Counted from the first letter of the stretch, positions 1,337-21,444 are shown. The stretch is 21,823 bases of DNA from Candidatus Bathyarchaeia archaeon (GCA_038883795.1 JAVZLK010000025.1:1-21823), one strand, 5' to 3'. The notes: a model not told the origin generated them from the letters alone. Program-made: numbers and translations.

Positions 1337-1492
1337 TCTAATGCTCCCCTCAGGATAAACCCGTATTTGAAATTTTAAAAGAATCACCATCTAATAAAAC
1401 CTACCAATTCCCTTCTACATCTCCTTTAAAAATCCAATGGACACATTTGTCAAGACAAACTTTATTGTTCTGTTAGTGAGACTAAAAGAACT
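1178..1492 (+). repeat. Diverged direct-repeat copy of 6845..7157 (Zn-finger gene, upstream region and recombination site)
   Basis: Shared blocks include CCACACATAAAACAAACCCT, CTAATAAAACCTACCAAT, AACTTTATTGTTCT and GACTAAAAGAA. Similarity stops right after the site's right arm. Confidence 0.9.
1466..1492 (+). repeat. dif/lox-like site, degenerate (5-bp spacer)
   Basis: TGTTCTGTTAG-TGAGA-CTAAAAGAACT; positional counterpart of the site at 7130, with 1 bp lost from the spacer. Confidence 0.75.
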
Positions 1493-6774: not shown

Positions 6775-6826
6775 TTGCTTCAACTATTCTTAACGTTATT
6801 GCAAATCAATGCTGCTCTATAATGAA

Positions 6827-7000
6827 TCAACTGAGGCTTTTTGTCTTCTTCATGATAGCATAACATGATTTGCAAAGGTAATGTTCTACAACAGGCTTCA
6901 ACTCGCCTGTTTCACGGTCTAAGACCTCCTTATAAACAGGGTTAGCTTCACCCTCCGGAATTTCCTTCCCACACATAAAACAAACCCTTTTCTTCACCAT
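6827..7000 (-). CDS. Small zinc-finger protein (CFMC...CKSC), 57 aa
   Basis: MVKKRVCFMCGKEIPEGEANPVYKEVLDRETGELKPVVEHYLCKSCYAIMKKTKSLS. Start set at ATG 7000 by comparison with the paralog at 1336. Confidence 0.8.
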   Translation of the reverse strand: MVKKRVCFMCGKEIPEGEANPVYKEVLDRETGELKPVVEHYLCKSCYAIMKKTKSLS

Positions 7001-7129
7001 TCCACCACATTCCTCAGCATAAACCCATTTAAAATTTAAAAAGAAACACCAACTAATAAAACCTACCAATCCTTCTCTATATTCCGTTAAAAGAAATTTA
7101 AAGGGCGTATCTGCTATGTCGAACTTTAT

Positions 7130-7157
7130 TGTTCTCTTAACGATGACTAAAAGAATA
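7130..7157 (+). repeat. dif/lox-like site, spacer CGATGA
   Basis: TGTTCTCTTAA-CGATGA-CTAAAAGAATA. Confidence 0.85.
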
Positions 7158-7194
7158 TTTATTTTTTGACTGAACTTATATTAAGAGGGACAAG

Positions 7195-7494
7195 ATGGAT
7201 TTATTGTTGCTACTTTGCATACTTCTGTTTATCGCCTTCTCGTTCCTTTATGTCGCTTATCATCGTCTTAAAAAATATGCCAAAAATTGCGAGGAACAAA
7301 TTAGGAGGAGAGACGAGGTCATACGGGAAAATGATAGAAAGTTAAAAATTATGGAAAGAAAGTTAAAAGAAAAGGAGAAGCTGGTTAAACAATATCAACC
7401 TTATTATTTGAAGTATCTTGAAGAGGAAGAGCGACGGGAAGAGGAGGAATATAGAAGGCGCATACAGCGTGTTAGGGATGCCGAGGTGTTGTAA
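7195..7494 (+). CDS. Hypothetical membrane-anchored coiled-coil protein
   Basis: N-terminal TM helix followed by an E/K/R-rich helical tail. GAGGG SD upstream. Confidence 0.75.
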   Translation: MDLLLLLCILLFIAFSFLYVAYHRLKKYAKNCEEQIRRRDEVIRENDRKLKIMERKLKEKEKLVKQYQPYYLKYLEEEERREEEEYRRRIQRVRDAEVL

Positions 7495-7522
7495 TCTTTG
7501 GTGGATTTGTGTTTGTCCGTAA

Positions 7523-7888
7523 TTGATATGGTTTAAAGGTGAAAGGTCGGAATGGGCAGAGGAAGCTATTGTGGCTTGGGAAGAAAAGAGAAGAAAAGCT
7601 TTGGTCAATGCGACTCTGTTTTATGCTGTTTCTGGTGTTCAAAATGGAGCCATAAAAGCGGCGGACCATGTGAATGGTTGCGCTTTTTTGTCTGAAGGGT
7701 GGGAATGGAAAATTTGCGATTTGCGCTGTAAAAAATCCGGAGTTACCATGAAGAAGAGCCCTTTAGAGTGTGCCCATTTGAACACAATTCTAATTCCCAT
7801 TTTTAATGTGAGGGGGGAGCCTCGCAGAGTTGTTAAAAAATGCGTTGAATGTGGCGAAATATTGGAAACTGAGAGTATTGGTCGCTGA
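7523..7888 (+). CDS. Hypothetical protein, possible Zn-binding C-terminus (CAH...CVEC)
   Basis: 121-aa ORF co-directional with the previous gene; Cys/His pairs. Confidence 0.6.
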   Translation: MIWFKGERSEWAEEAIVAWEEKRRKALVNATLFYAVSGVQNGAIKAADHVNGCAFLSEGWEWKICDLRCKKSGVTMKKSPLECAHLNTILIPIFNVRGEPRRVVKKCVECGEILETESIGR

Positions 7889-7920
7889 AAGTAAAACTTG
7901 TAGAATTTAATCTTAATAAA

Positions 7921-8451
7921 TTACTCTTTCTTATTAAGCACAACTAAGCCTTTCTTTTTAGCTATGAAGATTAAACGGGATTCTATATTCTTAAGCTCCT
8001 TTTTTGATGAACTTTGTTGAAGTGAAAAAGATATAATAACTGGCTCCTTCATTTTGATCACGAAGTTTGGTCCAGATCGTTGATGTTGAAAAGGCTCAAA
8101 CCATGCATTAACCCATAAGCTATGATCTTGATCATCATATCGTTTTGTGCCTAATATTTCACATGCCAAGCCTCTTAGGTGATAAGCATGAGACCTTTTC
8201 CATCTACCACCCACCTGTTTTGAAATTCCAAAATAAAAGTAATTTTCAGATATGCGTCTGGCAACGTAAATGTGAGGCGAATTTTTGACTAGATCATACG
8301 CTTCTTTAGCCCTTTCAGAAAGAAAGAATCCTTTCTCATCAAAAATAGCGAGAAGAGGCTGCTCTGGTAAAGTCTTGAAAAGAGGAACAGGATTTGCCAA
8401 AGCTAACTTCCATAATTGAACATCATTAATCTTGAACAATTTCCCTTGCAT
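7921..8451 (-). CDS. Putative GIY-YIG superfamily nuclease
   Basis: HIYVARR..YFYFGIS...RWKRSH...IESRLI...LNK matches the GIY-YIG motif order (IY, YxG, R, H, E, N). The ORF could start at 8475. Confidence 0.6.
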   Translation of the reverse strand: MQGKLFKINDVQLWKLALANPVPLFKTLPEQPLLAIFDEKGFFLSERAKEAYDLVKNSPHIYVARRISENYFYFGISKQVGGRWKRSHAYHLRGLACEILGTKRYDDQDHSLWVNAWFEPFQHQRSGPNFVIKMKEPVIISFSLQQSSSKKELKNIESRLIFIAKKKGLVVLNKKE

Positions 8452-8527
8452 ACAGGTCGCATAGAACAAAAACATGGTGATTATTATAACGTTTATTATT
8501 ATGAATCTCTACACGGCTTAGTAGAGA

Positions 8528-8554
8528 TGTTCTGTTAGAAACATTAATGGAATA
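8528..8554 (+). repeat. dif/lox-like site, GA(A)ACA-class spacer, 1 bp short
   Basis: TGTTCTGTTAG-AAACA-TTAATGGAATA. Confidence 0.75.
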
Positions 8555-8627
8555 GCACATTTATATGGCGGAACATTTTTACAAAAAAGTTTTATGAGTA
8601 AACTTAGCTTTAATTTTGGGATAAATT

Positions 8628-9743
8628 ATGCCGTTATACGTTGCAAATGATGAGACAATAAATATGATAAGATATGCTCTTGGTGTCTTTAAGTATAGAG
8701 ATTATCTGAGCGGCTTTAGTGAATTGTCTGCTTATCTAGCGTCTCTAAGTTTTGAAAGAACGATTCTTCAAACTGGGGTCAAGTTTGGATTAGACAGAGA
8801 ATTTGGAGCGTTTAGGTATGAAATTACAGATGTAATCAATTTTCTTAGAAAAAAGCAGTTAATAGACGAAAGTGAGTATAAGAAACTTGTATTTTGTAGG
8901 GATTTTCGGAATAATGTAATGCATAAAGGTGCAACCACAACGGAGATACAAGAAACCAAAAAAATATTAAAGACATTATGTGAGATGATTGGACTTGCTT
9001 TAGATGAGGAGTTAGAAAAAAGAGAATTTGAAGACATTTTATCATTCGGTAAAAGACCAACTGTTAAGCGTGAGTTTTCCATTATTCAAGATTCGGACTT
9101 TGATAATTTTATTATACTTTATGAAAAAGCATTAGCGTTGCATTTTAATTTAGAGAAACCACTCTCTTTGCTTGGCTTGAAGCCGGAAGAAGTTTCGGAG
9201 TTTGTTCCAAATAGCGGTGGAATTTGGCTTCCGTGGGTGTTAGGAGAATCCGGAGGAAGATCTCACATAAGAAGAGCCACTTTAGGCATAACATTCACTC
9301 CAAACAGCATAAGAGTCGGAATTGATTTTGGAAGCAAAGCTTACAAGGCAAAACAACAGTATTATTCTCTTCTACTCGAAAACAAAATAGATGAAGTGCT
9401 TTCCAAGTTAACTGAGTCAAATTATCTATTTTACGACACTTATTGGTATTATCACATCCGAAATCTAAGAGCTATTCAAAAATACTTTGATTCATCACAA
9501 GAAATCAAGCATGAGCTTCATATAACATTAGAAGAAGTCAACGAAACTCTTAACCGCCTTAAGCCAATGGCTGGACATAAATTTCTAATTGGGAAAATTT
9601 TCCAAAGAAACACCGCAGAGTTTACCAAAGTAATTGAAAGCTTGCCCAACACAATCAGCAACATTTTTAATGATTTACGACCCTTACTAAAAAAGATAGA
9701 GAATTTCAAAATGTCAACCTATCAGCTACGATACTCTCCATAA
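8628..9743 (+). CDS. Putative HEPN-domain protein with an uncharacterised C-terminal domain
   Basis: Helical N-terminus with SFERTI and RDFRNNVMH (RxxxxH HEPN RNase motif). Confidence 0.6.
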   Translation: MPLYVANDETINMIRYALGVFKYRDYLSGFSELSAYLASLSFERTILQTGVKFGLDREFGAFRYEITDVINFLRKKQLIDESEYKKLVFCRDFRNNVMHKGATTTEIQETKKILKTLCEMIGLALDEELEKREFEDILSFGKRPTVKREFSIIQDSDFDNFIILYEKALALHFNLEKPLSLLGLKPEEVSEFVPNSGGIWLPWVLGESGGRSHIRRATLGITFTPNSIRVGIDFGSKAYKAKQQYYSLLLENKIDEVLSKLTESNYLFYDTYWYYHIRNLRAIQKYFDSSQEIKHELHITLEEVNETLNRLKPMAGHKFLIGKIFQRNTAEFTKVIESLPNTISNIFNDLRPLLKKIENFKMSTYQLRYSP

Positions 9744-9785
9744 CCTCTTTCCTATTCGCCAAAGGCCTTCTCGTATTATTGATGA

Positions 9786-9813
9786 TTTTCCGATAACGGT
9801 GATTAATAGAACA
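9786..9813 (+). repeat. dif/lox-like site, spacer CGGTGA, between two convergent genes
   Basis: TTTTCCGATAA-CGGTGA-TTAATAGAACA; ends 1 bp from the stop codon of the next gene. Confidence 0.8.
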
Positions 9814-9814
9814 G

Positions 9815-10513
9815 CTATGAGCTGCGAACTCTTTCCGTTAACTTCCTAATATACTCCGTAAGTTTTGTCCAACTCTTAAGGAGACCCTCTGCTTCTTCTA
9901 AGTCTAAGTATAAGTTAATGTCTGCTTTCCTAGCTTGACTTGTCAATTCCTCAAGTTTCTTTGAATCTTTGGATTTGAAGGCTTTCATCATATCGGTTGC
10001 CAAATTGAGTTTATGTTTAAGTTTTTCTGCTCTTCTTGCAAACTCCTCATTAATGCTTGTAAGAAACTTCTCTTCCGTCAATAGTGCTTCCCTAGATAAA
10101 AGATGTTGTAACGTTTCAATGTTCTCCTCTCTTGCTAAGTCTCTCCTATACATTTTACATAAGGGCACATCGACGGAACATACATATATCCTAAACTCAT
10201 CACCGTTAGTTATCATTCCAAGCAAGACTTGCGATTCTTCCATATATCGCTTCAGTTGTGGTAAATGCCTCTCTAAGTTTTCACCTAATTTCTTAGTTTC
10301 TACAATTATGCATGTTTCTCTGGAGGGGCCTCTGATAAAAATGTCCCTTCCAGAATGTTCAAAACTAAGGTCAGTAAGACCATGACCAAGGCATTGTAAA
10401 ATGGGTAGAACCACTTTAATTTTAACATCCTCTTCCAGAAATCCTACATCTTTAGGAGTGTAATTGGCAATTTCTTGAAATACCTTCTCTTTATTACCGT
10501 TTGAATGTGACAT
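9815..10513 (-). CDS. Type I restriction enzyme HsdR N-terminal-like (HSDR_N) nuclease-domain protein, stand-alone
   Basis: EEDVKIKVVLPILQCLGH...DIFI...IIVETKK...QLKRY...GMITNGDEFRIY. No helicase domain follows, only a helical tail. Confidence 0.8.
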   Translation of the reverse strand: MSHSNGNKEKVFQEIANYTPKDVGFLEEDVKIKVVLPILQCLGHGLTDLSFEHSGRDIFIRGPSRETCIIVETKKLGENLERHLPQLKRYMEESQVLLGMITNGDEFRIYVCSVDVPLCKMYRRDLAREENIETLQHLLSREALLTEEKFLTSINEEFARRAEKLKHKLNLATDMMKAFKSKDSKKLEELTSQARKADINLYLDLEEAEGLLKSWTKLTEYIRKLTERVRSS

Positions 10514-10716
10514 AATTTTACTTTCCTAATGAAAATAATCTTGACAGTTAAAATAATTTTTGGGTCTTATGCACTTATAAACGGAGAAAATCAATTACTT
10601 CGATTAAGAGAGTATTGATTTTGAGTCTCGGCTGTCTCGTAAGGCATTTTCTCCATTTTGCGCAATACTTTATTGCAATAATGTTCGACATTTTTTGGCT
10701 CGACTGCAGATGTTCT

Positions 10717-10744
10717 GATTCTGTTAAGAGACACTAATAGTATG
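10717..10744 (+). repeat. dif/lox-like site, spacer GAGACA
   Basis: GATTCTGTTAA-GAGACA-CTAATAGTATG. Confidence 0.85.
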
Positions 10745-10853
10745 TTCTCATCTGAAAAGGGCTTTCGCATCGCTTTGAAATCGCTTTGAATAATAAAAAA
10801 TGGGCACTTATATAGGATACATGAAACAAGTATAATGTGGTGGAGATGATGGA

Positions 10854-11363
10854 ATGTCGCGGGGAAGAATTCCCACAGTCGCTGGAAAGAAAGCTGAGAT
10901 GCGGTTTGTTTCGGCTTTGATAGAAAGAGATTTTATTCCTTTTATTCCGGTGGTCGATTTAGGAATTGATGTAATTGCGGAGAAATTCTCAGAAGGTCAA
11001 CCACCCAAATATTTTGCTTTTCAAGTGAAAACTTCGTCGTTTAGTAGTAAAAATGCTTGCTGGTATTGGTATATAAATAAATACAGCTTTAGATGCGCCA
11101 AAAACGTTTTCTACGTGCTTGTGTTTGAAGATGCTGAAAACTTCCCTGAAAATGTTAAAGCGGATCCTCAGTTCAACACATGTATAATTCCATCTAAGGA
11201 AATCTGCACATCTGGTCATTGGACTACTTATAAAGGAGGGCAGAGTTTTGACGTGACGATTACAGTCAACATGTTGAAACACATCCGAAGGTTTTCTAAG
11301 AAAGCAACAAATAGTGGAATAGCATTGCGTCACTTTAATAGGTGGTCTAATCTGAATCATTAG
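10854..11363 (+). CDS. PD-(D/E)XK endonuclease-fold protein
   Basis: GKKAEMRF..ALIER...PVVDLGIDVIA...FQVKTS (E...D...QxK). Confidence 0.8.
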   Translation: MSRGRIPTVAGKKAEMRFVSALIERDFIPFIPVVDLGIDVIAEKFSEGQPPKYFAFQVKTSSFSSKNACWYWYINKYSFRCAKNVFYVLVFEDAENFPENVKADPQFNTCIIPSKEICTSGHWTTYKGGQSFDVTITVNMLKHIRRFSKKATNSGIALRHFNRWSNLNH

Positions 11364-11528
11364 ATTGTTTTTCATCTTCAATCAATTAGGAATTGTTAAA
11401 GAAACCACTGTCCAATACCTAATCTTGGAAATGTTCCAGTTGATAGGGCATCCCATACAAAAATTACCTTTCTTCAAGTAAAGAGCTTGTTTCGAAACGC
11501 TTATCTCCTAATATCCCCCCATTCAACG

Positions 11529-11556
11529 ATTCTTGTTAGCGGTGACTAATAGGAGT
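11529..11556 (+). repeat. dif/lox-like site, spacer CGGTGA
   Basis: ATTCTTGTTAG-CGGTGA-CTAATAGGAGT. Confidence 0.8.
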
Positions 11557-11639
11557 GATATTTTATTTCGTGTAGTCGGATGCGTTTGGATGGTTTGAAG
11601 GAGAAATTTATTTTGATGTTTTTATGATTAGTATAAGGG

Positions 11640-12125
11640 GTGGGGCGGATGGAGGTTTCGGGTGAGGTTTCAGCTTTGGCTAATTATCAACGAAAGATGG
11701 AGGAATTTTATAATGATCTGTTGGATGTTTGGTTTAGGGGATGTTTTGGACTTTACACGGACGTTTTTTGTGAAGAGGAACCGTATGTTCTGCATCCTGA
11801 CATAGAATTGGTGTTTTTTGAGGATGTTTTAAATGTGGATCCGAATGATCCTGAGCAGCCAATGTTGAGGCTTCTCGGAAGTCTTGTTAAGAGGGGGTGG
11901 CAAATTAAGATGAATTTTATGGCTCGAAACTGCCTGTTAGGCAATGTGGTTGTGAAGATTGGTGATAAGTGGTTTGCTTTTGGGCAGTGCAGAAGGGATG
12001 ATTATGGAGAACCATATGTGGCGGAGATATGGCCTTTAAAATATGTTTTGCCGAGGATTGAAAAAATGGAGGTTAAATTAAAATATGCTAAAGCTATAAG
12101 AGAGGAGGCCCTAATTCCGCCTTAA
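11640..12125 (+). CDS. Hypothetical protein
   Basis: 161-aa ORF with a G-rich SD region (ATG at 11649 is an alternative start); no motif recognised. Confidence 0.7.
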   Translation: MGRMEVSGEVSALANYQRKMEEFYNDLLDVWFRGCFGLYTDVFCEEEPYVLHPDIELVFFEDVLNVDPNDPEQPMLRLLGSLVKRGWQIKMNFMARNCLLGNVVVKIGDKWFAFGQCRRDDYGEPYVAEIWPLKYVLPRIEKMEVKLKYAKAIREEALIPP

Positions 12126-12417
12126 ACTCTTGACATTCACTTTCAGTATGTTTTAGCCTTTCATGCATTGATTGCTTTTTGGTTTGAACTTTAACGGTTA
12201 TGAGTTTCCTCTTGTTTTTGAAATCTTCGTCATATTCTAGGAGGTTGATTTTTAATATCACCCAATAAGGCTCTTTTCTCCAATGAACATTTAAATATGA
12301 ACAGGTCATGGGTTCGCCAATTTTGACTAAACTATCGATTTCCTCTTTAGTAACGCCAGCAAAAGACAAAGACTCTAACAACTTCTGCTTAACAGTTTCC
12401 AAAGCTTCAACCATCAA
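12094..12417 (-). CDS. Hypothetical protein
   Basis: 107-aa ORF with GGGTG SD-like upstream sequence; its 3' end overlaps the convergent ORF by 32 bp. Confidence 0.6.
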   Translation of the reverse strand: MMVEALETVKQKLLESLSFAGVTKEEIDSLVKIGEPMTCSYLNVHWRKEPYWVILKINLLEYDEDFKNKRKLITVKVQTKKQSMHERLKHTESECQEFKAELGPPLL

Positions 12418-12758
12418 ACCACACCCAAAGCCACAAATGGGGAGCCATTAGCACTTAAGAATTTTCCAAAAATTCAAATAAACAACGAAGATAAAAAAGC
12501 CCCAAAAAACCAAAAATTAAATAAAAAAGGAAGCATGTCCAAAACTTCGATGAAAATCGGTAATTTTTGAGAGAAAACGAACAGAAGCGAACAGAATAAA
12601 TATTTATAAGCGGTTTGGTTAAATGCATATAACCATGCCAAAGCTAATTTGCGCTTTTGGAGAATACCTAACTGTTTAATTCGTCTGCTGAAAGTATTTG
12701 CAGAAGTTTTCCAGAAATTATAACATCTTTCGTTGAAGCAGAATTACTAGATAGGAAT

Positions 12759-13320
12759 ATGCTCCAAGACTATAGGAAGATGAACCTATCACTCCATAGT
12801 CTGTTGGTTTTCGCTCTCGTGGTGGCTGGCTTCAGCTCCAATTTACTATCAGCTATTGAGCCTCGCATACCCTTGTCTACGCCCCTAAATCCATCTAATT
12901 ACGGCGTGGTTTCAAGGAGAGGAATACCAAGGTTGCACCATCAAATAAAATTCGACGTGTGTCTTTACCGAAACAAATCTCATGACACTTTTGCTGAAGT
13001 TAATACCATTGATACGGCTTTGGGATACGAGAGTTCCAAGGAAAGAGTTTCTAACAAAGAGAGACATTTATAAGCACTTCGGTAAACAAGCAGAACAAAA
13101 GTATGGATTTATTATCTGCATTACCTTGCCACGTAACGTTATATATCGACCGCCATGGCCTGACCAAAGATATTTAAATGCAATTTACTACGCAACGCTT
13201 GAGCCAAAATGGAGAGAACTGAGAACCGAATTGAATGAATACTTGGATGCACATTTGATAGTGATAGAAGAAAACGGCATACACATTAATGGTGTCCATT
13301 TTCCTATCCATTTTCCTTGA
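12759..13320 (+). pseudogene. Probable frameshifted/decayed gene, possibly nuclease-like
   Basis: Two overlapping ORFs in different frames (12759..13073, 12982..13320). IKFDVCLY...FAEV in the first looks as if it should continue into RKEFLTKRDIY...FIICITLP in the second. Confidence 0.4.
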
Positions 13321-13527
13321 CAAATGAATTTGAATATCCTAACAGCTTCTTTTTCTTTTGAAAGTTAAGATACTACATTATTATTTTCAGGGAAAAGTAA
13401 ACTTTTGTCTGCGTTGGGAATTCACAGCCCTTGATCAAGTTCGCAAGGTTTTGGGCTTGCCTTCCTATCACTCTGGCCTAAGCTTCCTTTTCTCTCAAAG
13501 AGAATTGCTTTAACTTGTTTTTGGCGA

Positions 13528-14067
13528 CTATCTTTTTAACTGAATGTCCATCATCTTTTCAACTAAGTGCAACAGCCACAGTCCATCTGGTAGCGTTGTT
13601 GTTCCTTTTGTCTTAGGCTTAAATGGAGGTTTTTCTTTCCAATCGTCAATTGCCGGAATGACATCCTCTTTTATGAAAGAATCTAAATGTTTTATGTTAA
13701 TGTTGTTCTTTTTAGTGGCTTCAATAGTTTCCTTGCTTACATACGTTGCAATATAGAGATTTTCGTAAGACGCTTTTCCATCAAAACCAAGTTTTTTGCG
13801 ACAATATTCCTCAATAGCTTTTTGATTAACGCTACTGAACTTCTTCTGAATATGTTGAATGTTTTTTTCGGTGCCTCCTGGTAGACTGCCAACTTCTACA
13901 TGCATTATTTCCAGAACCCTGTCTCTAATCCTAATCCCTAAAACATCGGCTTCAGGTCTTCCTCCAGGCTCTGCGGTTCTTATTGGAACAGAGATCTCAA
14001 CGAAATAGCCCTTTAACTGTAACCATTCCGCTATTAATTCTTCACTCCATGTTCTGGTATAAGGCAT
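13528..14067 (-). CDS. Restriction-endonuclease-like PD-(D/E)XK-fold protein
   Basis: WSEELIAEWLQLKGYFV...EADVLGI...HVEVG. GGTGA SD upstream of ATG 14067. Confidence 0.7.
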   Translation of the reverse strand: MPYTRTWSEELIAEWLQLKGYFVEISVPIRTAEPGGRPEADVLGIRIRDRVLEIMHVEVGSLPGGTEKNIQHIQKKFSSVNQKAIEEYCRKKLGFDGKASYENLYIATYVSKETIEATKKNNINIKHLDSFIKEDVIPAIDDWKEKPPFKPKTKGTTTLPDGLWLLHLVEKMMDIQLKR

Positions 14068-14366
14068 TTTTAACTTCACCGTGAAGAAAAGATGAACTTT
14101 AAACATATTAACTTATTCAACTCTTTATAATGTTGAATGCGCGTTATCAGAAGACTTTGGAATGGTTAAATAGATTAAAAGAGAACAATTAAGTGAAGTG
14201 CAACTTCAAAAGCACAATAACGATTCATGACCAATGGGAAACTTTAACGAGGAAATATAAAAGTAATTCAATTTTTATCTTGAAACCTGTGAACTTTGTG
14301 TGAAGGAAATAGAATTTTACGATATTAAAGAAAAAGGGGGTAACGATTTTAATTTCAATGTTGAAC

Positions 14367-14525
14367 TTATACTGCCTTTATTCTCTTGACTATTGGCGAT
14401 CGCACCTTGCGTGCAACTTTATAGAGACAGTTTGGGCACTTCCAGTTTAGTATCTCCCACTTCTCCGCCGAACACCTAAGACCGCACCTTACACACTCAT
14501 AAATAATTTCGCCTGAGTTGGACAT
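14367..14525 (-). CDS. rpoP: DNA-directed RNA polymerase subunit P (Rpo12)-like protein, 52 aa
   Basis: Below the ORF-track cutoff. MSNSGEIIYECVRCGLRCSAEKWEILNWKCPNCLYKVARKVRSPIVKRIKAV has the Rpo12 pattern Y.C.RCG...CP.C.Y(K/R)...K.R...vK.iKA. Strong SD GAGGTG. Confidence 0.85.
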   Translation of the reverse strand: MSNSGEIIYECVRCGLRCSAEKWEILNWKCPNCLYKVARKVRSPIVKRIKAV

Positions 14526-14694
14526 GCGCATCACCTCAAAAGAAAGAGCATTTGGTTATACACGCGCACACATCAGAACAAAACAATGAAAATTCGTCAC
14601 ATTCCTCTTATTTAGCTTTTTCTGACAAATATTCTAAAGGTTACTGCTGGCATCAAAGAACACCTCCACTCACACGGTGCTCCGTTTTCTCAAA

Positions 14695-14722
14695 CATTCT
14701 GTTAGCGATGATTAATGGAACT
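14695..14722 (+). repeat. dif/lox-like site, spacer CGATGA
   Basis: CATTCTGTTAG-CGATGA-TTAATGGAACT. Confidence 0.88.
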
Positions 14723-14761
14723 TTAAAATTTTAAATATAATTCTAATGAAAAGACTGTATA

Positions 14762-15202
14762 GTGCACGATATGAGCAATCGTCAAATATCTGGCATGTCT
14801 GGTGTTTATTATGTGGCTGCAGAATTGTCCAAGCTGGGTTACATAGCCCTCGTAACGACCCGCAACACGAAGGCTGCTGACATTATTGCTATGAATGATG
14901 AAACAGGTGTGAGCGTGGCTATAGAAGTAAAAACATGTGGCATCTCTACTTCGGATAGCTTCTGGCTCCTCAGTGCGAGAGACCGTCAAAAGAAGCCACA
15001 TAATTTTATCTACGTGTTCGTCAAACTTAATAGAGATAAAGCTCACGATTTTTATATAGTGCCAGCTCAGTTTGTTGCGAAGAACGTTGAGAAACAAAAG
15101 GCTAAGACAGGAAGCGTATGGTATTACATATCAAAAGATCGAATAGCTTCATTTAAGCAAAAATGGGATTTAATACAGCATGTTACAACCAAAAAATCTT
15201 GA
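14762..15202 (+). CDS. PD-(D/E)XK endonuclease-fold protein
   Basis: GMSGVYYVAAELSKLGY...RNTKAADIIA...IEVKT. ATG 14771 is the likely start. Confidence 0.8.
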   Translation: MHDMSNRQISGMSGVYYVAAELSKLGYIALVTTRNTKAADIIAMNDETGVSVAIEVKTCGISTSDSFWLLSARDRQKKPHNFIYVFVKLNRDKAHDFYIVPAQFVAKNVEKQKAKTGSVWYYISKDRIASFKQKWDLIQHVTTKKS

Positions 15203-15223
15203 AGATTTTCGTAACGACTATTT

Positions 15224-15718
15224 TTATAACTCAAGTAGCTGTTTCCACTTAAGGGCTTCATCTGTTCCAAAGGTGGATAAAACATCCTCTATACGAACAA
15301 TTTCGCGTAAGGCATCCTTTCCAAACTCTTCTAGGTAAAGGCTAACTATTTCACCTGGACCAATATTCTTATGTTTGGCTAATTCTAAGAATGCTCCGAA
15401 TATCAATTTTTCTCTCTCTAGGGCATATTCTCTTAGCTCATCGTGGTCGGTGTGGCGACGAATTTCCTCTATTCTTTGTAAGCAACTTAGAACTCCCTCA
15501 AGGTCGTCCAGACCTATTTTATCTGATCTCAAATCGTAGTATCTGATAATGGACATTGCCTCTACAGCTGATGTTAGTAAAACCATCGATTCTTTAATTT
15601 CTCTTTCAGACTTATGTTCTTGCTCCTCTAAACTCTTAACAATGGTATTTATTCGGGAGCCTATTTGCTCAATTGCGTCTTCTATTCTCTTAATCCGCTG
15701 TTCAATATCGTCTCCCAA
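15224..15718 (-). CDS. Hypothetical helical/coiled-coil protein
   Basis: 164-aa ORF, TTG start with GGTGA SD, N-terminal heptad pattern. Confidence 0.7.
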   Translation of the reverse strand: MGDDIEQRIKRIEDAIEQIGSRINTIVKSLEEQEHKSEREIKESMVLLTSAVEAMSIIRYYDLRSDKIGLDDLEGVLSCLQRIEEIRRHTDHDELREYALEREKLIFGAFLELAKHKNIGPGEIVSLYLEEFGKDALREIVRIEDVLSTFGTDEALKWKQLLEL

Positions 15719-15775
15719 AATTTCACCGCACTTTTTGATTAAAAATTTCTAGCAAGCCCTTTAAAATTTTTGGGT

Positions 15776-15803
15776 AATGCTGTTAAGATCTTCGAAAGGT
15801 ATC
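15776..15803 (+). repeat. Degenerate dif/lox-like site (candidate)
   Basis: AATGCTGTTAA-GATCTT-CGAAAGGTATC; good left arm, weak right arm, intergenic. Confidence 0.45.
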
Positions 15804-15873
15804 CATAAAATTCGCTTGCAGTTTACTTAATGAAAGACATATAATATTTTTGTGTTAAATACACTATAGAGGT

Positions 15874-16773
15874 GTGCTCTTGTCCCAAAGGAAAATGCTT
15901 TACGCTGAGGCCGAGGGAAGCTATACAGATATCCTTTACCTGCACATATTAAGCGAGAAAGTTTTTCCTGAAAATGATGGTGTTGTTAAAGAAGTTCAGG
16001 TTGGTGGGAAGAAAAGTTTTGTTAGAGTTGACTTGGTTTCACGCTATGGACAGCCGGAAAGATATTTTGGAATTGAGGTAAAATACTGGCCTGGAGCTTT
16101 CGAGCAAGGTTTTAAGCAAGCTGATAGAATAAAAGGTAATGTTCATGCGGTTTTCTTAGGCATTCCAGCTGAAGATGTGCCAGTCGCCCAGGAAGTTAGG
16201 GGGAGGAGGTTTAGAGATATTGGTGTTTTACCAGTTTCACGAATTTTTCCAACAAAAGTTGCTGCAGTTAAAGCTAGCCTAAACGCTAATCCTGATCAAA
16301 ATGCACTCAATCAACTCTCCAAACATTTTGATGATCTACTTTATGGGAAAGAATATTCGGAAACTTATTATAGCAAGATTTGGGATGTCATAAAAAGCAA
16401 ATTGACAAAAAGGAGAAAATTTGCATTTTTTATTCTTTTCCTTTCACAAACTGAAGTCTACTCTAAACAGAAATTTTTGTCGCAGCAAAAAGTCAGAGAA
16501 TTTGGAATTAAATTATCCGAAGCGCTTAACCTGCAAATCAAGCATCCAGATTGGGCTTGCTGGGAATTATATCATTTAGGTATTGTAGAATACGTTCGAA
16601 TAGGTGTCCGAAACAACTTTTTTAGGCTTAATCCCTGGCTAATCGTGACCGTTAAGGATACGATTAAAGATTATTTCAAGAATGAAATTATTCAATCTCA
16701 AAATGTCGTTCAACAAATTCACAGAGAGATAATAGATAAAAGATCTAACGTTATCCATGATTACATCGGTTGA
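15874..16773 (+). CDS. PD-(D/E)XK nuclease-fold N-terminus with possible C-terminal winged helix
   Basis: KEVQV...RVDLVSR...GIEVK...GFKQA. C-terminal ACWELYHLGIVEY...FFRLN is wHTH-like. GAGGTG SD. Confidence 0.7.
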   Translation: MLLSQRKMLYAEAEGSYTDILYLHILSEKVFPENDGVVKEVQVGGKKSFVRVDLVSRYGQPERYFGIEVKYWPGAFEQGFKQADRIKGNVHAVFLGIPAEDVPVAQEVRGRRFRDIGVLPVSRIFPTKVAAVKASLNANPDQNALNQLSKHFDDLLYGKEYSETYYSKIWDVIKSKLTKRRKFAFFILFLSQTEVYSKQKFLSQQKVREFGIKLSEALNLQIKHPDWACWELYHLGIVEYVRIGVRNNFFRLNPWLIVTVKDTIKDYFKNEIIQSQNVVQQIHREIIDKRSNVIHDYIG

Positions 16774-16782
16774 TTTTAAACA

Positions 16783-16810
16783 TATTCTGTTAGGAGACAC
16801 TAACAGAATA
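16783..16810 (+). repeat. dif/lox-like site, perfect inverted arms, spacer GAGACA, between convergent genes
   Basis: TATTCTGTTAG-GAGACA-CTAACAGAATA; the arms are perfectly complementary and extend to 12 bp. Confidence 0.92.
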
Positions 16811-16850
16811 TATGAAGAGAGTCTGCTTAAACATTGCCTAATTTCATTGG

Positions 16851-17921
16851 CTACTTAATTTGCGTCTTTAACCAGTAAACGGTGTTTTTGAATTTTTCGC
16901 GGTTTTCTGGTTCAATTAGTGCGTTAATTTTTACTGAGGGCCACTTTGAAAAATCAGCTGGAATTTGCTGTAGAGAGGGTATTTCATGTATCATTTTGTG
17001 AAATTGTTCGAGAATTTCTTTGGGTAATTGCGCTTTCATCCAGCCGTAATTTAATGTGAGTTTCCCGTTTGTGTAGACGGTGAATACTGATATAGTCTTG
17101 CCTTCCTTTATAAAATGAAAGGTAAAGGACCCCACTTCTCTACCAGTCCCAAACCACACTCTATCAGCCGTCCTTGAACTCCACTCATACAGATCCTTAA
17201 CTAAATCAACAATATCAGACTCGTTTTTCTCTTCTAAAACAGCAAAGAATTCCTCTTTTGACCATTGGCCTCTTTCTTTTGAAATTGATGGCTTCATAGA
17301 AACACCATACAAATGTGGCACTAGTATTTCAAGTTGGTCGACTTGAAACCTTTTCATTTCCAAGGCATGTAAAGAAAAAGCGGATTTGCTACACTCGTTT
17401 AAGTATCTTATTATTCGTCTTAATTCCTCATTTATGGTGTCCACAACTATTATGAGAATAAAAGAGCCTGTCTCCAATGTTCGTTTAACGCCTTCTCGAA
17501 ATTGTTCTTCATCCCATTCTCCAGCTACGCCTTCCGCAACAAGATCTGCAAGGCTTTTTCCCTTCAACTTTTGAATTCGAGCATCAATTTCTTCATAACT
17601 CATTCCCCAAAGATATGCTGCATACTCCAAAATCTGGCCAATAACTTTACGTTTGACTTCCGGGTTTGCAGCAAGTTTGCACTCTATTATTGCAATGTCG
17701 CCTTGCGAGCTAAAGGCTAAAACATCTGAAGCTCCAGAGCCAGGTAAACCAAATTCGCTTACAGCAAATATAAGTGGTGAGGCGCCTTCTCTTATTTCGT
17801 CAATCGTTATAAGGGATGGAGATTCAACAAGCAATTTTTGAAGCTCAGACTCAGCCTTGGCTATAATAGTTTCTGCAAACTTCCATTTTTTCGATCCAAT
17901 ATCGCGAATTAGTATTTTCAT
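16851..17921 (-). CDS. NucS/EndoMS-like PD-(D/E)XK nuclease-domain protein with a C-terminal accessory domain
   Basis: ESELQKLL..SP...EF...G.SDVL...G.IAIIECKL..N.E.KRKVIGQILEYA. Confidence 0.75.
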   Translation of the reverse strand: MKILIRDIGSKKWKFAETIIAKAESELQKLLVESPSLITIDEIREGASPLIFAVSEFGLPGSGASDVLAFSSQGDIAIIECKLAANPEVKRKVIGQILEYAAYLWGMSYEEIDARIQKLKGKSLADLVAEGVAGEWDEEQFREGVKRTLETGSFILIIVVDTINEELRRIIRYLNECSKSAFSLHALEMKRFQVDQLEILVPHLYGVSMKPSISKERGQWSKEEFFAVLEEKNESDIVDLVKDLYEWSSRTADRVWFGTGREVGSFTFHFIKEGKTISVFTVYTNGKLTLNYGWMKAQLPKEILEQFHKMIHEIPSLQQIPADFSKWPSVKINALIEPENREKFKNTVYWLKTQIK

Positions 17922-18027
17922 AACGCCATCACAAACAAAGATTAAAATTCAAGTGCAATATTTTAATTTCTGTGCAGAATTTAAAGGAGTTGCCATGGCT
18001 TCACAAGTAGTAACCAGAAACTTAATA

Positions 18028-18720
18028 TCAAAGTGTGCTATCGCTAATAATCTCTGCCATACTTTTAACTAACATTACTGCTGTATCTACTTCACATTGA
18101 TCGACGAGATGGAATATCCCCCGTTCAATATCTACCGCTATAACATTCGCATTCTTAAAATAAGTTTTTGCAGTTTCTCTGCAGAGTTTGCTCCAAAAGT
18201 GGTATAGTTCACAATTTTGTTTTGTTATTGGAATATAAGTCGGATATTCTTTTATAAAATGGAAAAACGTCTTAATCTTGCTCTTTTTAAGTTTAAGCAA
18301 TTTTCTATCGAGTGCTACGTAATTGCAAGGATCTAAAAACATTCTAAGCTTTGATGAAAAAGACATATTAGAAAATTGGGGAAGACTCAATTTCTTTATT
18401 TCTAGGAGACCATCACCCTCAATTTTTGAGAAGAGAGTTGTTGCCTTTCGAATTTGTTCCAAAGTGATTTCATCCAAGAATTTTTGGACTCTACGCCAGC
18501 AATATCCTGCCGTTAAATTCCCCCAATAAACGACGTTAGCTAAACCAAATTTAATTTCTAATGGTTTTTTTGACAATAATTTCTTCCTTAGGTAATTCTC
18601 AAGCTCTCGCATCGTTTCAAACATAATCTCTTGTTTTTGCTCAAAATCGTAAAGTCGAGCTGGATAATTGTAGCCTCTTACCGCTTCATACAGGATCTTA
18701 ATCTGCTCATCCGTTAACAA
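18028..18720 (-). CDS. Hypothetical protein, possibly HhH/OGG-like DNA glycosylase fold
   Basis: VVYWG...LPQFSNMSFSSKLRMFLDP..YVALD...AVDIERGIF resembles OGG-like helix-hairpin-helix families. GAGGG SD before the TTG start. Confidence 0.5.
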   Translation of the reverse strand: MLTDEQIKILYEAVRGYNYPARLYDFEQKQEIMFETMRELENYLRKKLLSKKPLEIKFGLANVVYWGNLTAGYCWRRVQKFLDEITLEQIRKATTLFSKIEGDGLLEIKKLSLPQFSNMSFSSKLRMFLDPCNYVALDRKLLKLKKSKIKTFFHFIKEYPTYIPITKQNCELYHFWSKLCRETAKTYFKNANVIAVDIERGIFHLVDQCEVDTAVMLVKSMAEIISDSTL

Positions 18721-18883
18721 TATGTGCCCTCTCCATATTATTATTTCATTAGTTTCATTATCCTCTAAACTACTACCTTTACACCTTTAGAATTCTCTAC
18801 ATTAGGCTAAAATTTAAAACAAACAAAAACATTTGTAGCTGCAAAAAAGTCGGAGAAAAATGCATCAAACGGTTTAAATGGGA

Positions 18884-18911
18884 TGTTCGGTTAATAACGT
18901 TTAATGGTTGT
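18884..18911 (+). repeat. dif/lox-like site at the backbone/array junction, overlapping the RHH gene stop
   Basis: TGTTCGGTTAA-TAACGT-TTAATGGTTGT. Confidence 0.65.
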
Positions 18912-19400
18912 TTGTTCTTGTTGTTTTGGTGGTGGGTATTTTTGTTTTCTTGTGTTTGTTAGTTTTTCTTGTTTTTCGCATAAGCGTTTAGCTGCTTCTA
19001 AGAAGTCTATGAAGAGGTGGAGTTTTTCTAAGGGTCCGTCGTATGCTGTTAGGAGTTTGGCGACAACCTCATCCATGTTTGCGAGCTTTTCAGTGTCTAA
19101 TCCTTGTTCTACTGCCAGGTTTAACAGTTCGTCTTCTGGATCTTCCTTCCTCATTTGGGCGTGGAGCCTTTCAAACTCGCGGAATAGGCGGCGATATTCC
19201 CTCTTCAAAAACTCGTAGTCTTCAGCCCATTCACCTGCTTCGCCTGCCTCACCAACCCATCTTTTAAGGAATTCTGTTACCACAGCGCTTAGAGAAGTGC
19301 CCCTTGACACACACAGCCTTTTAGCAGCCTCAGCCAAGTCAAGGGGAACCCAAAGATGCAAAGACACGCCCACTTTTCCGGCAAGCCTCTGCCTTGGCAT
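18891..19400 (-). CDS. Ribbon-helix-helix (CopG/Arc-like) DNA-binding protein with a coiled-coil C-terminus
   Basis: VSLHLWVPLDLAEAAKRLCVSRGTSLSAVVTEFLKRWV is a beta-helix-helix RHH pattern. Divergent from the recombinase. Confidence 0.8.
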   Translation of the reverse strand: MPRQRLAGKVGVSLHLWVPLDLAEAAKRLCVSRGTSLSAVVTEFLKRWVGEAGEAGEWAEDYEFLKREYRRLFREFERLHAQMRKEDPEDELLNLAVEQGLDTEKLANMDEVVAKLLTAYDGPLEKLHLFIDFLEAAKRLCEKQEKLTNTRKQKYPPPKQQEQTTIKRY

Positions 19401-19574
19401 AGAGGCATCCCTCTAAAAGAAAAATTGCGCACTTGAACATATGCTAGCCTTGCGCCTATCACTCCATTTATAACTATTATTATTTTAACTCTCTATTGCG
19501 CCGCCACTCAGCTCTTGGCTGGCGTTTTTATGCGCAGAAAACCCCACCCCAGCGTTTTCATGCATGGTAAATCC

Positions 19575-19602
19575 ATTGCTGTTAACACCTCTTAACAGAA
19601 AA
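19575..19602 (+). repeat. dif/lox-like site about 100 bp upstream of the recombinase gene
   Basis: ATTGCTGTTAA-CACCTC-TTAACAGAAAA. Additional half sites TCAACAGAAAA (19619-19629) and GCTTCCATTAA (19678-19688). Confidence 0.8.
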
Positions 19603-19701
19603 GCCCAAAACGCCTAACTCAACAGAAAATTTTCAAAAAGCCTTGAAAAGCGCCATAATATAAGGGTTTGTTGATAGGCTTCCATTAAATTTTTCTTCTG
19701 A

Positions 19702-20616
19702 ATGACATCGCCAGAAGTCGAGGAATTCCTCTTAGCCCTTAAGCCTGGAACACGCCACGTTTACGCTAGGGGCTTAGCCAAATTCCAAGAATTCTTATCT
19801 GGGCAGGGGCTTGATGCGGCTGGTTTCCTTAGGCTTGTCGAAGAAGACTTGCAAAAGCCTAGGCTTGAGAAAACACGGGTAGCCCGCAAAACCCTAAACG
19901 CCTTCATAGGCTATCTGCAGGCTGAAGGCTTTGCCCCCAAATCCATAAACACATATGTTGGAGCCGTCCAGTCCCTCGCAAAATACTACGACATTTCGTT
20001 GGGCATGCGGTATGTTAGCCGACCGCCAGCTACAGCTGTCCACAAAAAGCATCCATGGACCATTGAAGAGATAGCCAAATTCACAGCGTTGATGGAGAAC
20101 ACCCAATACCGTTGTATTGCAGCCTGCATAGTCCAAAGCGGACTAAGCATATCAGACCTTTTAAGCCTAAAATACGCAGACATCCAAAACGAGTTCGAGA
20201 AGGGTATATCGCCCCTCTGCCTGGACCATTCAAGAAAGAAGACCAACATACCCTTCCTAACATTTCTAGGCGGATGGGCTTTATCGCTTCTAAAACAGCA
20301 CTTAGAAGGCAGACGTCTAGAAGAAGATACACCAATATTTACGGTTACGGCAAGGGCTGTTGACAGTTACTTCGCAAGAATTGGCGCAAAATTCGGCGGA
20401 AAATTCAAAGGGCGAAATCCCTACAGCCCCCATTCGTTGCGGGCTGCTTTCCGCACAATCCTAAGCGATCATAAGGTTGACCCGCTTTACATAGAGTTTT
20501 GGATGGGACACAAAGTTCCAGAGCAACAAATTGTTTATGTCAGCAAAAGCCGAGAAGGCTGGAGAGAAGCGTATCGCACTTTGGCGGAGCCTTGGCTTAC
20601 TCCGATGAAGGCTTAA
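19702..20616 (+). CDS. Tyrosine recombinase/integrase (XerC/D-like architecture)
   Basis: N-terminal SAM-like domain (T...Y...L..F; KSINTY..AV.S...Y). RKKT(178-181), HSLR(244-247), MGH(270), Y279. Box I reads SGLS instead of the canonical GxR. Confidence 0.92.
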   Translation: MTSPEVEEFLLALKPGTRHVYARGLAKFQEFLSGQGLDAAGFLRLVEEDLQKPRLEKTRVARKTLNAFIGYLQAEGFAPKSINTYVGAVQSLAKYYDISLGMRYVSRPPATAVHKKHPWTIEEIAKFTALMENTQYRCIAACIVQSGLSISDLLSLKYADIQNEFEKGISPLCLDHSRKKTNIPFLTFLGGWALSLLKQHLEGRRLEEDTPIFTVTARAVDSYFARIGAKFGGKFKGRNPYSPHSLRAAFRTILSDHKVDPLYIEFWMGHKVPEQQIVYVSKSREGWREAYRTLAEPWLTPMKA

Positions 20617-21310
20617 CATTTTTAAGCTTGAATTTTTGAGTGGCTTCTTCGAACCATTCCACAAAATGCAAATCCTCATCCTTGGCGCTTAAAGCTTGAT
20701 TTTGTGAATCCATGTTTAGCTGTAGTTTGTTGAGGGCATGTTTTACTATGGCGTCTGCCCATCCTGTCGGAACTTTTAGGCGAGCAGCTAAAGCAAACGC
20801 AACAATTTTCCTTGCCAAATTGCCCGTGTAAGCGGCGATTTCGTGGTTTCCGCGGAACCCAAGCTTGTCCAGAAGCTGCGATATTCTGGAGAGGATTCTT
20901 CTAAGCTGCGGCGGATCCTCCATTTGGGCCATAATCTTTATTCTACGCGCTCTAAGCCCCAAATCCTCCCCGCCATTAGGCGCCTTAGCCAAAACCCGCA
21001 TCAAACCCTTTCCGCCATTATTTTCCAAAACCGGGTCGCCCAACCCCTTCAAAAAGCAGAGGCTGCTGCCAGGCTGCCAATGACCCTCAAAATGGCCGTT
21101 CAATCCTTCGCATTCGCCTTCTGGGAAAGGAACAGCCCATGAAACGTTTTCATCACTCCAAACCATACCGCATTTCATACATACGACCTCACCATCCGTG
21201 GCGACAATTGAGCCGCCACATTCCAAACACATGCCCAAAGCCAGACATAGCTCTTTAAGCTGCTCAAAAGAAAGCCTGCTACGCAGAAAATCAGCGCTAA
21301 TCAGCAGCAT
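20597..21310 (-). CDS. Divergent, truncated TFB/TFIIB-like protein (Zn ribbon plus probably one cyclin repeat)
   Basis: CLECGGSIVATDGEVVCMKCGMV is a TFIIB Zn ribbon. FLKGLG and LRRILSRISQLLDKLG...IAAYTGNLARK resemble the TFB B-reader and first cyclin helices. SD GGAGTGG before ATG 21310. Confidence 0.6.
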   Translation of the reverse strand: MLLISADFLRSRLSFEQLKELCLALGMCLECGGSIVATDGEVVCMKCGMVWSDENVSWAVPFPEGECEGLNGHFEGHWQPGSSLCFLKGLGDPVLENNGGKGLMRVLAKAPNGGEDLGLRARRIKIMAQMEDPPQLRRILSRISQLLDKLGFRGNHEIAAYTGNLARKIVAFALAARLKVPTGWADAIVKHALNKLQLNMDSQNQALSAKDEDLHFVEWFEEATQKFKLKNVKPSSE

Positions 21311-21394
21311 AAACCACTCCAAAGGAAAAATACCTTCAAAACGAGTCCGAAAACAGAAAAAGAGGGAATTTGCGGGAGAAATCTCCACGCTGTG

Positions 21395-21419
21395 GCGGGT
21401 TCAACTCCCACCCCCGGCT
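21395..21419 (+). tRNA. tRNA 3'-half fragment (T-arm plus acceptor 3' strand); probable att-site relic, possibly tRNA-Cys
   Basis: GCGGG-TTCAACT-CCCAC-CCCCGGC-T followed by a T-tract. No matching GCCGGGG 5' strand upstream, so not an intact tRNA. Confidence 0.65.
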
Positions 21420-21444
21420 TTTTCGCGCCACCCACAGACAGCCG

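Follow-up and report, generated by a model that had tools for sequence, protein, structure and literature searches.

We analysed a 21,823-nt window, the whole of contig C25 (21.8 kb) of genome bin G000, which is assigned to a Candidatus Bathyarchaeia archaeon (87% complete, 2.18 Mb in 81 contigs); the sequencing runs that hold this DNA are hot-spring metagenomes. (Here and below, G denotes a genome, C a contig within a genome and L a compared locus.) The window contains about 10 copies of an imperfect 24-bp palindrome with the consensus TTCYRTTAR-N6-YTAAYRGAA, hereafter the site, and towards its right end the gene for a small XerA-like tyrosine recombinase and that for a ribbon-helix-helix (RHH)-like protein diverge from either side of a terminal site. 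Each site has two inverted arms around a spacer, and we distinguish site types by the spacer word, which is CTGCAA in S1, CAGCGA in S2, CGATGA in S3, GAGACA in S4 and TAACGT in S5; S6 denotes the terminal type. In the list that follows, arm mismatches were counted against TTCTGTTA/TAACAGAA with an 8-nt gap, and open reading frames (ORFs) were called by a crude longest-ORF picker, without a gene finder.

1178-1490: diverged copy (76%) of 6845-7155 that comprises the small gene, here lacking an open frame, and its site, with which each of the two copies ends.
1468-1490, plus strand: site with a 7-nt gap, spacer GTGAGAC, one arm mismatch; the left-most site of the array region.
7132-7155, plus strand: S3-type site, spacer CGATGA, two arm mismatches.
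7195-8475: module of three ORFs (99, 121 and 184 aa), no family.
8530-8552, plus strand: site variant with a 7-nt gap, GAAACAT, two mismatches.
8628-9743, plus strand: module with a 371-aa ORF, no family.
9788-9811, plus strand: S3-like site, spacer CGGTGA, between convergent gene ends, three mismatches.
9815-10513, minus strand: module with a 232-aa ORF bearing an HSDR_N_2 domain (E 9e-6).
10719-10742, plus strand: S4-type site, spacer GAGACA, two mismatches.
10854-11363, plus strand: module with a 169-aa ORF, no family.
11531-11554, plus strand: degenerate S3-like site, spacer CGGTGA, four arm mismatches by manual count.
11640-14534: module of several small ORFs, no family.
14697-14720, plus strand: S3-type site, spacer CGATGA, two mismatches.
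14762-16773: module containing ORFs of 146, 164 and 299 aa; a weak left half-site lies inside it at 15778.
16785-16808, plus strand: S4-type site with perfectly palindromic arms, between convergent gene ends, no mismatch.
16851-18720, minus strand: module with ORFs of 356 aa, which matches PDC-S11, and 230 aa.
18886-18909, plus strand: S5-type site, spacer TAACGT, three arm mismatches.
18891-19400, minus strand: RHH-like protein, 169 aa.
19577-19600, minus strand: terminal S6-type site, spacer CACCTC/GAGGTG, one mismatch, between the divergent RHH-like and recombinase genes.
19601-19640: AT-rich box in the conserved flank of S6.
19702-20616, plus strand: small XerA-like tyrosine recombinase, 304 aa, from a clade that extends across the Bathyarchaeia.
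20597-21388, minus strand: zinc-ribbon protein, 263 aa, which follows the recombinase in the close clade.
21347-21423, plus strand: tRNA-Leu-like fragment (3' part), also conserved beside related loci.

The window motif, TTCTGTTAR-N6-YTAAYRGAA, gave 16 strand-matches at up to three mismatches, whereas 100 dinucleotide shuffles gave 0.49 on average and never more than 3. Across G000, where we scored two 8-nt arms at gaps of 6 to 10 nt and used reversed arms as a control, there are 50 sites at up to two mismatches versus 1 for the control, and only the 8-nt gap exceeds the control (12, 18 and 20 sites at 0, 1 and 2 arm mismatches, respectively). A first-pass annotation, made from the sequence of the window alone, had described a 28-bp site of 11-6-11 geometry in an array starting at 6827. 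The motif is present at every position listed there, the 24-bp core starting 2 bases after each noted coordinate and the weak copy at 15776 proving to be a left half-site only. The proposed dimensions need correction: over 176 distinct sites the conserved unit is 24 bp (9-6-9), the two outer bases on each side are not conserved (flank top-base frequency 0.41-0.48), and the site at 1468, well to the left of the proposed start, is already a homology breakpoint with respect to a genome of the same genus. In 37 of the 176 sites the two arms are exact reverse complements of each other, compared with 39.6 on shuffling, so that they vary independently, which fits a pair of protein half-sites and does not fit a hairpin.

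Contigs shorter than 40 kb hold 44 of the 50 sites in G000, and four of the other six lie within 3 kb of a contig end; the motif is thus not scattered in front of housekeeping genes, an outcome that the first-pass annotation had named as fatal to its proposal. Only 4 of the 44 lie wholly inside ORFs, although ORFs cover 84% of those contigs. As proposed, the sites bound gene modules, and the ORF calls bear out that the copies annotated at 9786 and 16783 (cores at 9788 and 16785) stand between the 3' ends of facing genes. The annotation had also called the sites co-oriented, and wherever a spacer type is repeated in the window (CGATGA, CGGTGA, GAGACA) all of its copies read the same way. Among 301 genomes sampled from one archaeal order, 71 carry the motif at up to one mismatch, spread over 33 of 98 genera, with 0-2 control matches per genome; other genomes with one exact site type are mostly Bathyarchaeia of hot springs and sediments. 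The exact S4-type site also turned up in bins labelled Micrarchaeota, Methanomethylicia, Terraquivivens and 'bacterium' (L044, L064, L065 and L069), which reflects either transfer across phyla or mis-binning. Genomes of family f7 (for example, G074:C14) have the same arms with quite different spacers, such as CGTAAT, CTTCTA and CTCTTT, and other lineages may therefore have their own sets of site types. In viral contigs we found no match to the S2 pattern.

The spacers fall into a small number of discrete words. In G000, 38 of the 50 sites are within one mismatch of one of the five words, where chance would give 0.046 per site, and of the remaining 12, 8 are terminal sites with variable spacers of their own and conserved flanks; the same words occur again in other genera. 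The types follow one another in a single order. Across 100 loci with typed sites (85 adjacent pairs; S5 orientation was omitted from this test), the neighbour was the next type in the order S1/S2, S3, S4, S5, S6 and in the same orientation in 61 pairs, compared with a mean of 11.7 and a maximum of 23 when labels were shuffled 2000 times; another 10 pairs skip one type, 3 are of mixed orientation, and 82 of the 85 are co-oriented. The relative G012, which belongs to another genus and is near-closed (98% complete, two contigs, 16 sites), has one array that reads S1-S2-S3-S4-S5-S6 and another that is identical in reverse, and the order recurs in loci of other species and in metagenome loci. In the window the order takes an expanded form (S3, variant, S3', S4, S3', S3, S4, S5, S6), with the consequence that sites of the same type stand there as direct repeats. 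What lies between the sites is far less constant than the sites themselves: the 22 S3-S4 slots have 21 distinct contents, the 15 S2-S3 slots 14 and the 21 S4-S5 slots 18, and slot lengths range from about 0.3 to 6.3 kb.

The first-pass annotation had staked its case on synteny breaking at the sites, and it does so. When 38 loci (409 kb) were compared all against all, with matches of at least 85% identity and at least 150 bp retained, 16 of the 70 distinct internal match ends fell within 10 bp of a site, as against 0.74 expected (maximum of 5 in 1000). Several cases illustrate the pattern. G000:C74 and G012:C2, which belong to different genera, are 97.4% identical over 1041 bp, ending at the edge of an S2 site; the single core-like syntenic stretch compared between these two genomes is 85.6% identical. 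The two arrays of G012 share 774 bp at 92.8% up to an S3 site and are different beyond it, and within bin G000 the contig pairs C45/C65 (99.5%) and C6/C80 (98.8%) share their sequence as far as a site and nothing past it. Positions 1-1496 of the window are 92% identical to a contig of the same genus, the match ending 6 bp from the 1468 site, and agreement between the window and C58 begins inside the 19577 site and runs rightwards. An empty and a filled form of one slot could also be compared: in G012 an S5 and an S6 site are 99 bp apart, whereas in G000:C80 a 263-aa gene lies between them, and on its far side this insert closes with the S5 spacer and right arm repeated in degenerate form; beyond this repeat the sequence is again homologous to the empty slot.

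Consistent with these findings, other hot-spring samples, for which assembled contigs only were compared, contain parts of the window in other settings. Contigs of three further runs carry some window modules at 95-99% identity and diverge at S3 and S4 sites, among them those at 7143 (contigs of three runs fit the window only from this point, in the middle of an S3 spacer, and differ to its left) and at 14696, where contigs of two runs align over 14696-15900 with 10 letters different and what remains of each record lies off the window. Several contigs with differing continuations start or end at the 16785/16808 site in other runs, and contigs from other samples have an S4 site followed by 10772-11469 and then by sequence unlike the window. 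In runs X2 and X3, 8738-10071 is uncovered by contigs and 12740-14073 is un- or barely covered, and the uncovered part proves nothing. Four apparent joints (7156 to 16785, 7157 to 10719, 14721 to 16785 and 16808 to 18886) were discarded as joined forms, since their shorter side of 22-25 letters is one site matching another, and a joint from 7062 back to 1401 is the window's own diverged repeat.

The protein encoded at 19702-20616 matches Pfam Phage_integrase with 40.4 bits, above the cut-off of 27.1; its best NCBIfam match is the XerA equivalog model (50.7 bits, cut-off 220), and its nearest solved structure is Pyrococcus abyssi XerA (4a8e). At E values up to 1e-10 it has 279 homologues, mostly named 'site-specific integrase' of Bathyarchaeia. 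Over 111 full-length homologues K180, R247, H270 and Y279 are invariant, as is an additional R178, and H244 is present in 110; the canonical set R-K-H-R-H/W-Y is incomplete in the clade in that the first Arg is replaced. The near-invariance of K, H, R, H and Y argues, from sequence conservation, for an active enzyme.

The linkage between recombinase and site was assessed blind, with 80 metagenome loci chosen by recombinase homology alone. Of the 49 that had at least 300 bp on both sides of the gene, 33 have a site within 300 bp of it (background, 0.04 per 630 bp), in agreement with the expectation that homologues of the recombinase would be flanked by the same kind of site. The position of the site is characteristic of the branch: in all 15 loci of close homologues (at least 76% identity) a terminal-type site precedes the gene by 117-199 bp, the corresponding distance in the window being 101 bp, and distant homologues have a site after the gene end (about 20 to about 270 bp) in 18 of 34 loci. 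Fifteen of the latter sites are S1/S2-type and lie 19-28 bp past the recombinase stop codon, and in several of the distant-homologue loci an S3 site in the same orientation lies a further 2.2-5.3 kb away. On G000:C8 (L013 994-1560), a copy of the recombinase that is 92% identical to that of the window stops after residue 168, where it is joined to an O-methyltransferase-like module; the DNA of this module is 84% identical to that of a module in G012. We considered this truncation as an event at a site and rejected that reading, as the junction is a short microhomology inside the gene, with no site.

The second gene linked to the sites encodes the RHH-like protein (about 170 aa), which adjoins the terminal site in the window, on C58, C79, C8 and C80, in G012 (twice) and in G007. 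Metagenome loci of the close clade have the layout of the window, with the RHH-like gene (leftward), S6, the recombinase gene (rightward) and the zinc-ribbon gene (leftward). In eight other loci the order is recombinase then RHH-like gene, with one site between them in six (at up to three arm mismatches), and these loci look like an empty platform. Assignment to the RHH fold depends on sub-threshold Pfam matches only (ParG, VAPB_antitox, FitA-like_RHH and DUF6364) and a match to a CopG chain in the Protein Data Bank has an E value of 0.41; a monomer model has helices at 20-33 and 37-54 after a disordered N-terminus (mean pLDDT 70), and homologues are named 'predicted CopG family antitoxin' in some sources. 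The stretch from S6 to the RHH-like start, a leader of about 190 nt, is conserved (window 19401-19576; L022 13181-13371; L114, L120, L125 and L132). It has a shared GAGAGTATAAGTAT-like box some 80-100 nt before the start codon, and an AT-rich box lies just upstream of S6; these boxes could be promoters or further protein-binding sites.

Taken together, typed, ordered and co-oriented sites, breakpoints exactly at sites, the duplicated half-site and the position-specific linkage point to site-specific recombination by the recombinase clade. We therefore lean, with somewhat better than even confidence, towards the view that the locus is a recombinase-run cassette-exchange platform, which would resemble integrons and Acinetobacter pdif modules in function and belong to neither family. 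In such a platform the palindrome would be a tyrosine recombinase core site, with two 9-bp inverted arms around a 6-bp crossover spacer, and the sites would divide a genomic island into slots; its parts would be the XerA-like recombinase gene at one end, the co-oriented sites S1/S2, S3, S4 and S5, and S6 followed by the RHH-like gene. The window's recombinase clade would bind and cut the sites, and the RHH-like protein may regulate or assist. Known tyrosine recombinases (Cre, Flp and Xer) require matching spacers. If spacer identity likewise governs the choice of partner here, unlike neighbours would not recombine and the array would stay intact, and sites of the same type in arrays on two DNA molecules could recombine, a single crossover swapping everything distal to the site and two crossovers swapping a single slot. 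A circle bearing two site types would, on integrating, give the S3-S4-S3-S4 pattern of the window. This rule of slot exchange fits the finding that each slot has its own content in a conserved frame of sites. It also modifies the first-pass proposal that the adjacent recombinase captures, excises and shuffles modules: modules bounded by sites and linkage to the recombinase are borne out, but the fixed order of unlike spacers speaks against free shuffling or excision of neighbours, and slot-by-slot replacement fits better. The more specific view, that this is a natural standardised system of five heterospecific core sites with common arms and one order, run by the Ser-for-Arg clade together with an RHH-like partner, we put forward tentatively, as a possibility short of an even chance. 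Such a system would keep arrays in register and let any module give way to another of its slot, from a different array, strain or even genus, with the neighbours undeleted.

Could the palindromes instead be operators, bound by the RHH-like protein or another regulator, as the first-pass annotation had foreseen among its possible refutations? Small archaeal plasmids have ribbon-helix-helix repressors that bind to inverted repeats in the promoter of the repressor gene, and on such an account the sites would be operators of a CopG-like repressor, the RHH-like protein, of an integrated plasmid-like element, and would act as linkers for homologous or microhomology-based replacement of modules, the recombinase serving only to integrate the element into a tRNA gene. 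The conservation of the RHH-like gene next to the terminal site in several genera, the AT-rich, promoter-like boxes around that site and the tRNA-like fragments that flank recombinase genes suit this account, as does G012:C1 at about 931-937 kb (L022 13372-18001 and beyond), where genes for a P4-family primase (888 aa) and an integrase of 446 aa come next after a terminal site and the RHH-like gene, an arrangement like that of small integrative plasmids, so that the G012 array looks as if it abuts an integrated plasmid-like element. What operators would not predict are discrete spacer types in one order across genera, sites between convergent 3' ends, the duplicated half-site at a filled slot and a site 19-28 bp past the recombinase stop in 15 loci; moreover, the RHH-like gene is present in only 4 of the 10 motif-bearing relatives and the RHH fold is itself sub-threshold. 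Operator function thus accounts for the terminal site and leaves types, order and breakpoints unaccounted for. It is compatible with recombination at the same sites; as the whole explanation we regard it as unlikely. A hairpin, RNA element or tRNA was rejected given that Rfam has no family matching the palindromes, that ARAGORN detected no tRNA in the window and that the arms do not covary. Structural repeats of any kind (REP- or MITE-like elements, terminators or RNA hairpins that accumulate in variable regions) would share with the sites that they are short intergenic palindromes, some between convergent genes, and we give them hardly any weight in light of the lack of compensatory arm variation and of an Rfam match, the lack of a T run after the sites on inspection of the site list, positions that are ordered by type and tied to two protein genes, and the scarcity of sites on large contigs.

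The sites could, on the other hand, be true recombination sites that are served by another enzyme, either a larger integrase (about 420-490 aa) or that of a mobile element, with the small recombinase inactive or directed at another target. The small clade does lack the first catalytic Arg; G012 has full arrays, no clade member and 6-7 larger integrases, three of them about 5 kb from a site; and G000 has 26 Phage_integrase matches in 2.18 Mb, many on contigs shorter than 15 kb, an unusually high load of recombinases and probably of mobile elements, and has a 486-aa integrase about 400 bp from an S1 site on C45. We nevertheless think another enzyme improbable: the larger integrases keep no fixed distance to a site and at least one stands beside a complete tRNA gene, while members of the small clade are linked to a site in a position-specific way in 33 of the 49 blind loci, and across 111 sequences their K, H, R, H and Y vary little or not at all.

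A number of observations weigh against the cassette-exchange platform as we have drawn it. The position of the first catalytic Arg (Ser149 by alignment to 4a8e) is Ser in 108 of 111 homologues and Gly in 3, a loss that, judged from the alignment, leaves catalysis in question. Sixteen of the 49 blind loci lack a site within 300 bp at up to three mismatches; among 10 motif-bearing relatives only 3 have a recombinase homologue of at least 50% identity (intact in G002, broken in G008, a remnant in G007); and G012, at 98% completeness and with 16 sites, has no clade member, many arrays elsewhere likewise having no recombinase gene. Assigning the sites to the adjacent recombinase, as was done at first, is accordingly upheld by its fixed position in metagenome loci and weakened by these arrays and by the replaced Arg. 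The terminal site lies some 190 nt ahead of the RHH-like gene with conserved AT-rich boxes around it, a setting that suits an operator, and tRNA-Leu-like or T-arm-like fragments beside several recombinase genes suit an ordinary element integrase that targets tRNA genes, as which part of the clade may serve or have served. Of the 70 breakpoints, 54 fall elsewhere than at a site, and the exchange rule, under which unlike neighbours would not recombine, does not account for how a new module first enters a slot. The loci were mostly picked for holding sites, kin among them are non-independent and three contigs were entered twice; co-occurrence across 41 relatives offers too few cases, and leans too heavily on bin completeness, to favour either the recombinase or the RHH-like protein.

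Other features of the window concern what the platform carries and what surrounds it. To the left of the modules lie genes that show domain matches:

194-1153: protein in which zinc-ribbon motifs accompany a TackOD1 output domain, immediately to the left of the first site.
6035-6427 and 6415-6774: aspartate dehydrogenase that seems to be divided between overlapping ORFs (the NAD-binding part and the Asp_DH_C part), which may be a frameshift or a pseudogene.

The G+C content is 0.34-0.39 across the array and 0.40-0.48 on both sides of it. Most ORFs at 7.1-19.4 kb have no Pfam match, apart from the HSDR_N_2 protein and one candidate defence family: the 356-aa ORF (16851-17921) matches PADLOC PDC-S11 with 58 bits (E 1.8e-16). 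A defence island was considered and set aside, since among 10 window ORFs PADLOC found this one candidate family and one weak match, which is too little. The modules of the window point both ways. On other site-bearing contigs of G000, 9 of the 10 large proteins scanned have domains typical of secreted or surface proteins, among them NosD/beta-helix, Laminin_G_3, CARDB, MG2, fn3, lectin and PQQ propeller, and the tenth is an Eco57I-type methylase.

The 263-aa zinc-ribbon protein was dismissed as a universal platform gene, being found only within the genus among 41 relatives; its structural model is poor (mean pLDDT 53.5). The tRNA-Leu 3'-like element (about 75 nt) is 85-87% conserved beside related loci in four genomes, and its copies are these:

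Window 21347-21423
L015 1172-1249
L030 2046-2116
L032 3-81
L026 6698-6767

In G012 an isolated S2 site separates an intact tRNA-Leu from this element, the two being about 6.6 kb apart, and the fragment in the window may be the remnant of an old attachment site.

To our knowledge, integrons and pdif modules are the only well-known platforms for single-gene cassettes that depend on site-specific recombination, and both are bacterial in origin. Integrons resemble the loci described here in having a recombinase gene beside the first site and then a row of unrelated accessory-gene cassettes, and arrays without a recombinase are common among them as they are here ('CALINs', as covered in the main text of PMC9668308). 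They differ in several respects. As the first-pass annotation had expected, there is no IntI-type integrase and no long hairpin like those of attC sites, which are imperfect inverted repeats of about 60-140 bp at each cassette end: the NCBIfam scan of the 19702-20616 protein gave no match to TIGR02249 or PRK15417, and an inverted-repeat scan of 6800-19700 gave no recurrent long pair at module ends, the sole palindrome with the recurring motif among the 25 pairs shown being the site at 16785. The sites here are 24-bp duplex-type palindromes whose types follow a fixed order, and the cassettes point both ways, with two sites between convergent ends, whereas those of integrons mostly share one orientation and a common promoter. 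The archaeal integrons reported in the main text of PMC9668308 are classical attC/IntI elements, and 'Bathyarchae' is absent from that main text, the supplementary contig lists lying outside the comparison.

The geometry of the sites matches that given for Xer sites in the relevant passages of PMC8371274, namely inverted repeats (canonically 11-6-11) around a 6-nt spacer whose ends are the cleavage points. Archaeal XerA (4a8e) with its dif site likewise combines a recombinase of about 300 aa with inverted arms around a 6-nt spacer; here, unlike in that system, a genome carries many sites and not a single one, Ser replaces the first catalytic Arg and the score for the XerA equivalog model is 50.7 bits against a cut-off of 220. 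Like the arrays described here, the pdif modules of Acinetobacter carry one to a few accessory genes in either orientation, are bounded by Xer-type palindromic sites with a 6-nt spacer and are found in differing contexts, as far as the consulted portions of PMC6449649, PMC13141974 and PMC7399989 describe them. They are worked by the host's housekeeping XerC/XerD, whereas the sites here are tied to a dedicated small recombinase and an RHH-like gene. Neighbouring pdif sites alternate in orientation; the sites here are co-oriented (82 of 85 pairs), belong to about five spacer types that follow a fixed order and occur in an archaeal host. No XerA equivalog scores above the cut-off in G000 or G012, nor in G001, G003 or G006, the best match having 173.7 bits (G000:C21). 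Tycheposons and other tRNA-targeting islands, according to the abstract of 10.1101/2020.12.28.424599, resemble the loci here as variable islands with tRNA-derived repeats and tyrosine recombinases; tycheposons grow by integration of whole elements at a tRNA and are not known to have an internal row of typed palindromic sites.

The first-pass annotation had known of no description of such a system, and we found no published description of such arrays in the literature searched; the consulted portions of PMC6563490, PMC8371274 and PMC9668308 do not describe them, the supplementary tables of the last being outside the comparison. If our favoured reading of a cassette-exchange platform is correct, it would be a third, independent design of cassette platform, in which typed sites in a fixed order guard the array from internal deletion and yet permit exchange slot by slot, and it would explain both the diversification of secreted, surface and other accessory genes in uncultured hot-spring archaea and the presence of near-identical DNA in different genera. 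It would also provide a natural test of how a tyrosine recombinase functions without its first arginine. The closest parallel to this mode of exchange may be an engineered one: cassette exchange with heterospecific lox or FRT sites is a laboratory design, for which no natural counterpart was found in the literature searched, and the arrays here would share with it common arms, differing spacers and the swapping of a cassette without touching its neighbours, so that naturally orthogonal 24-bp sites with one small recombinase would be of interest for genome engineering.

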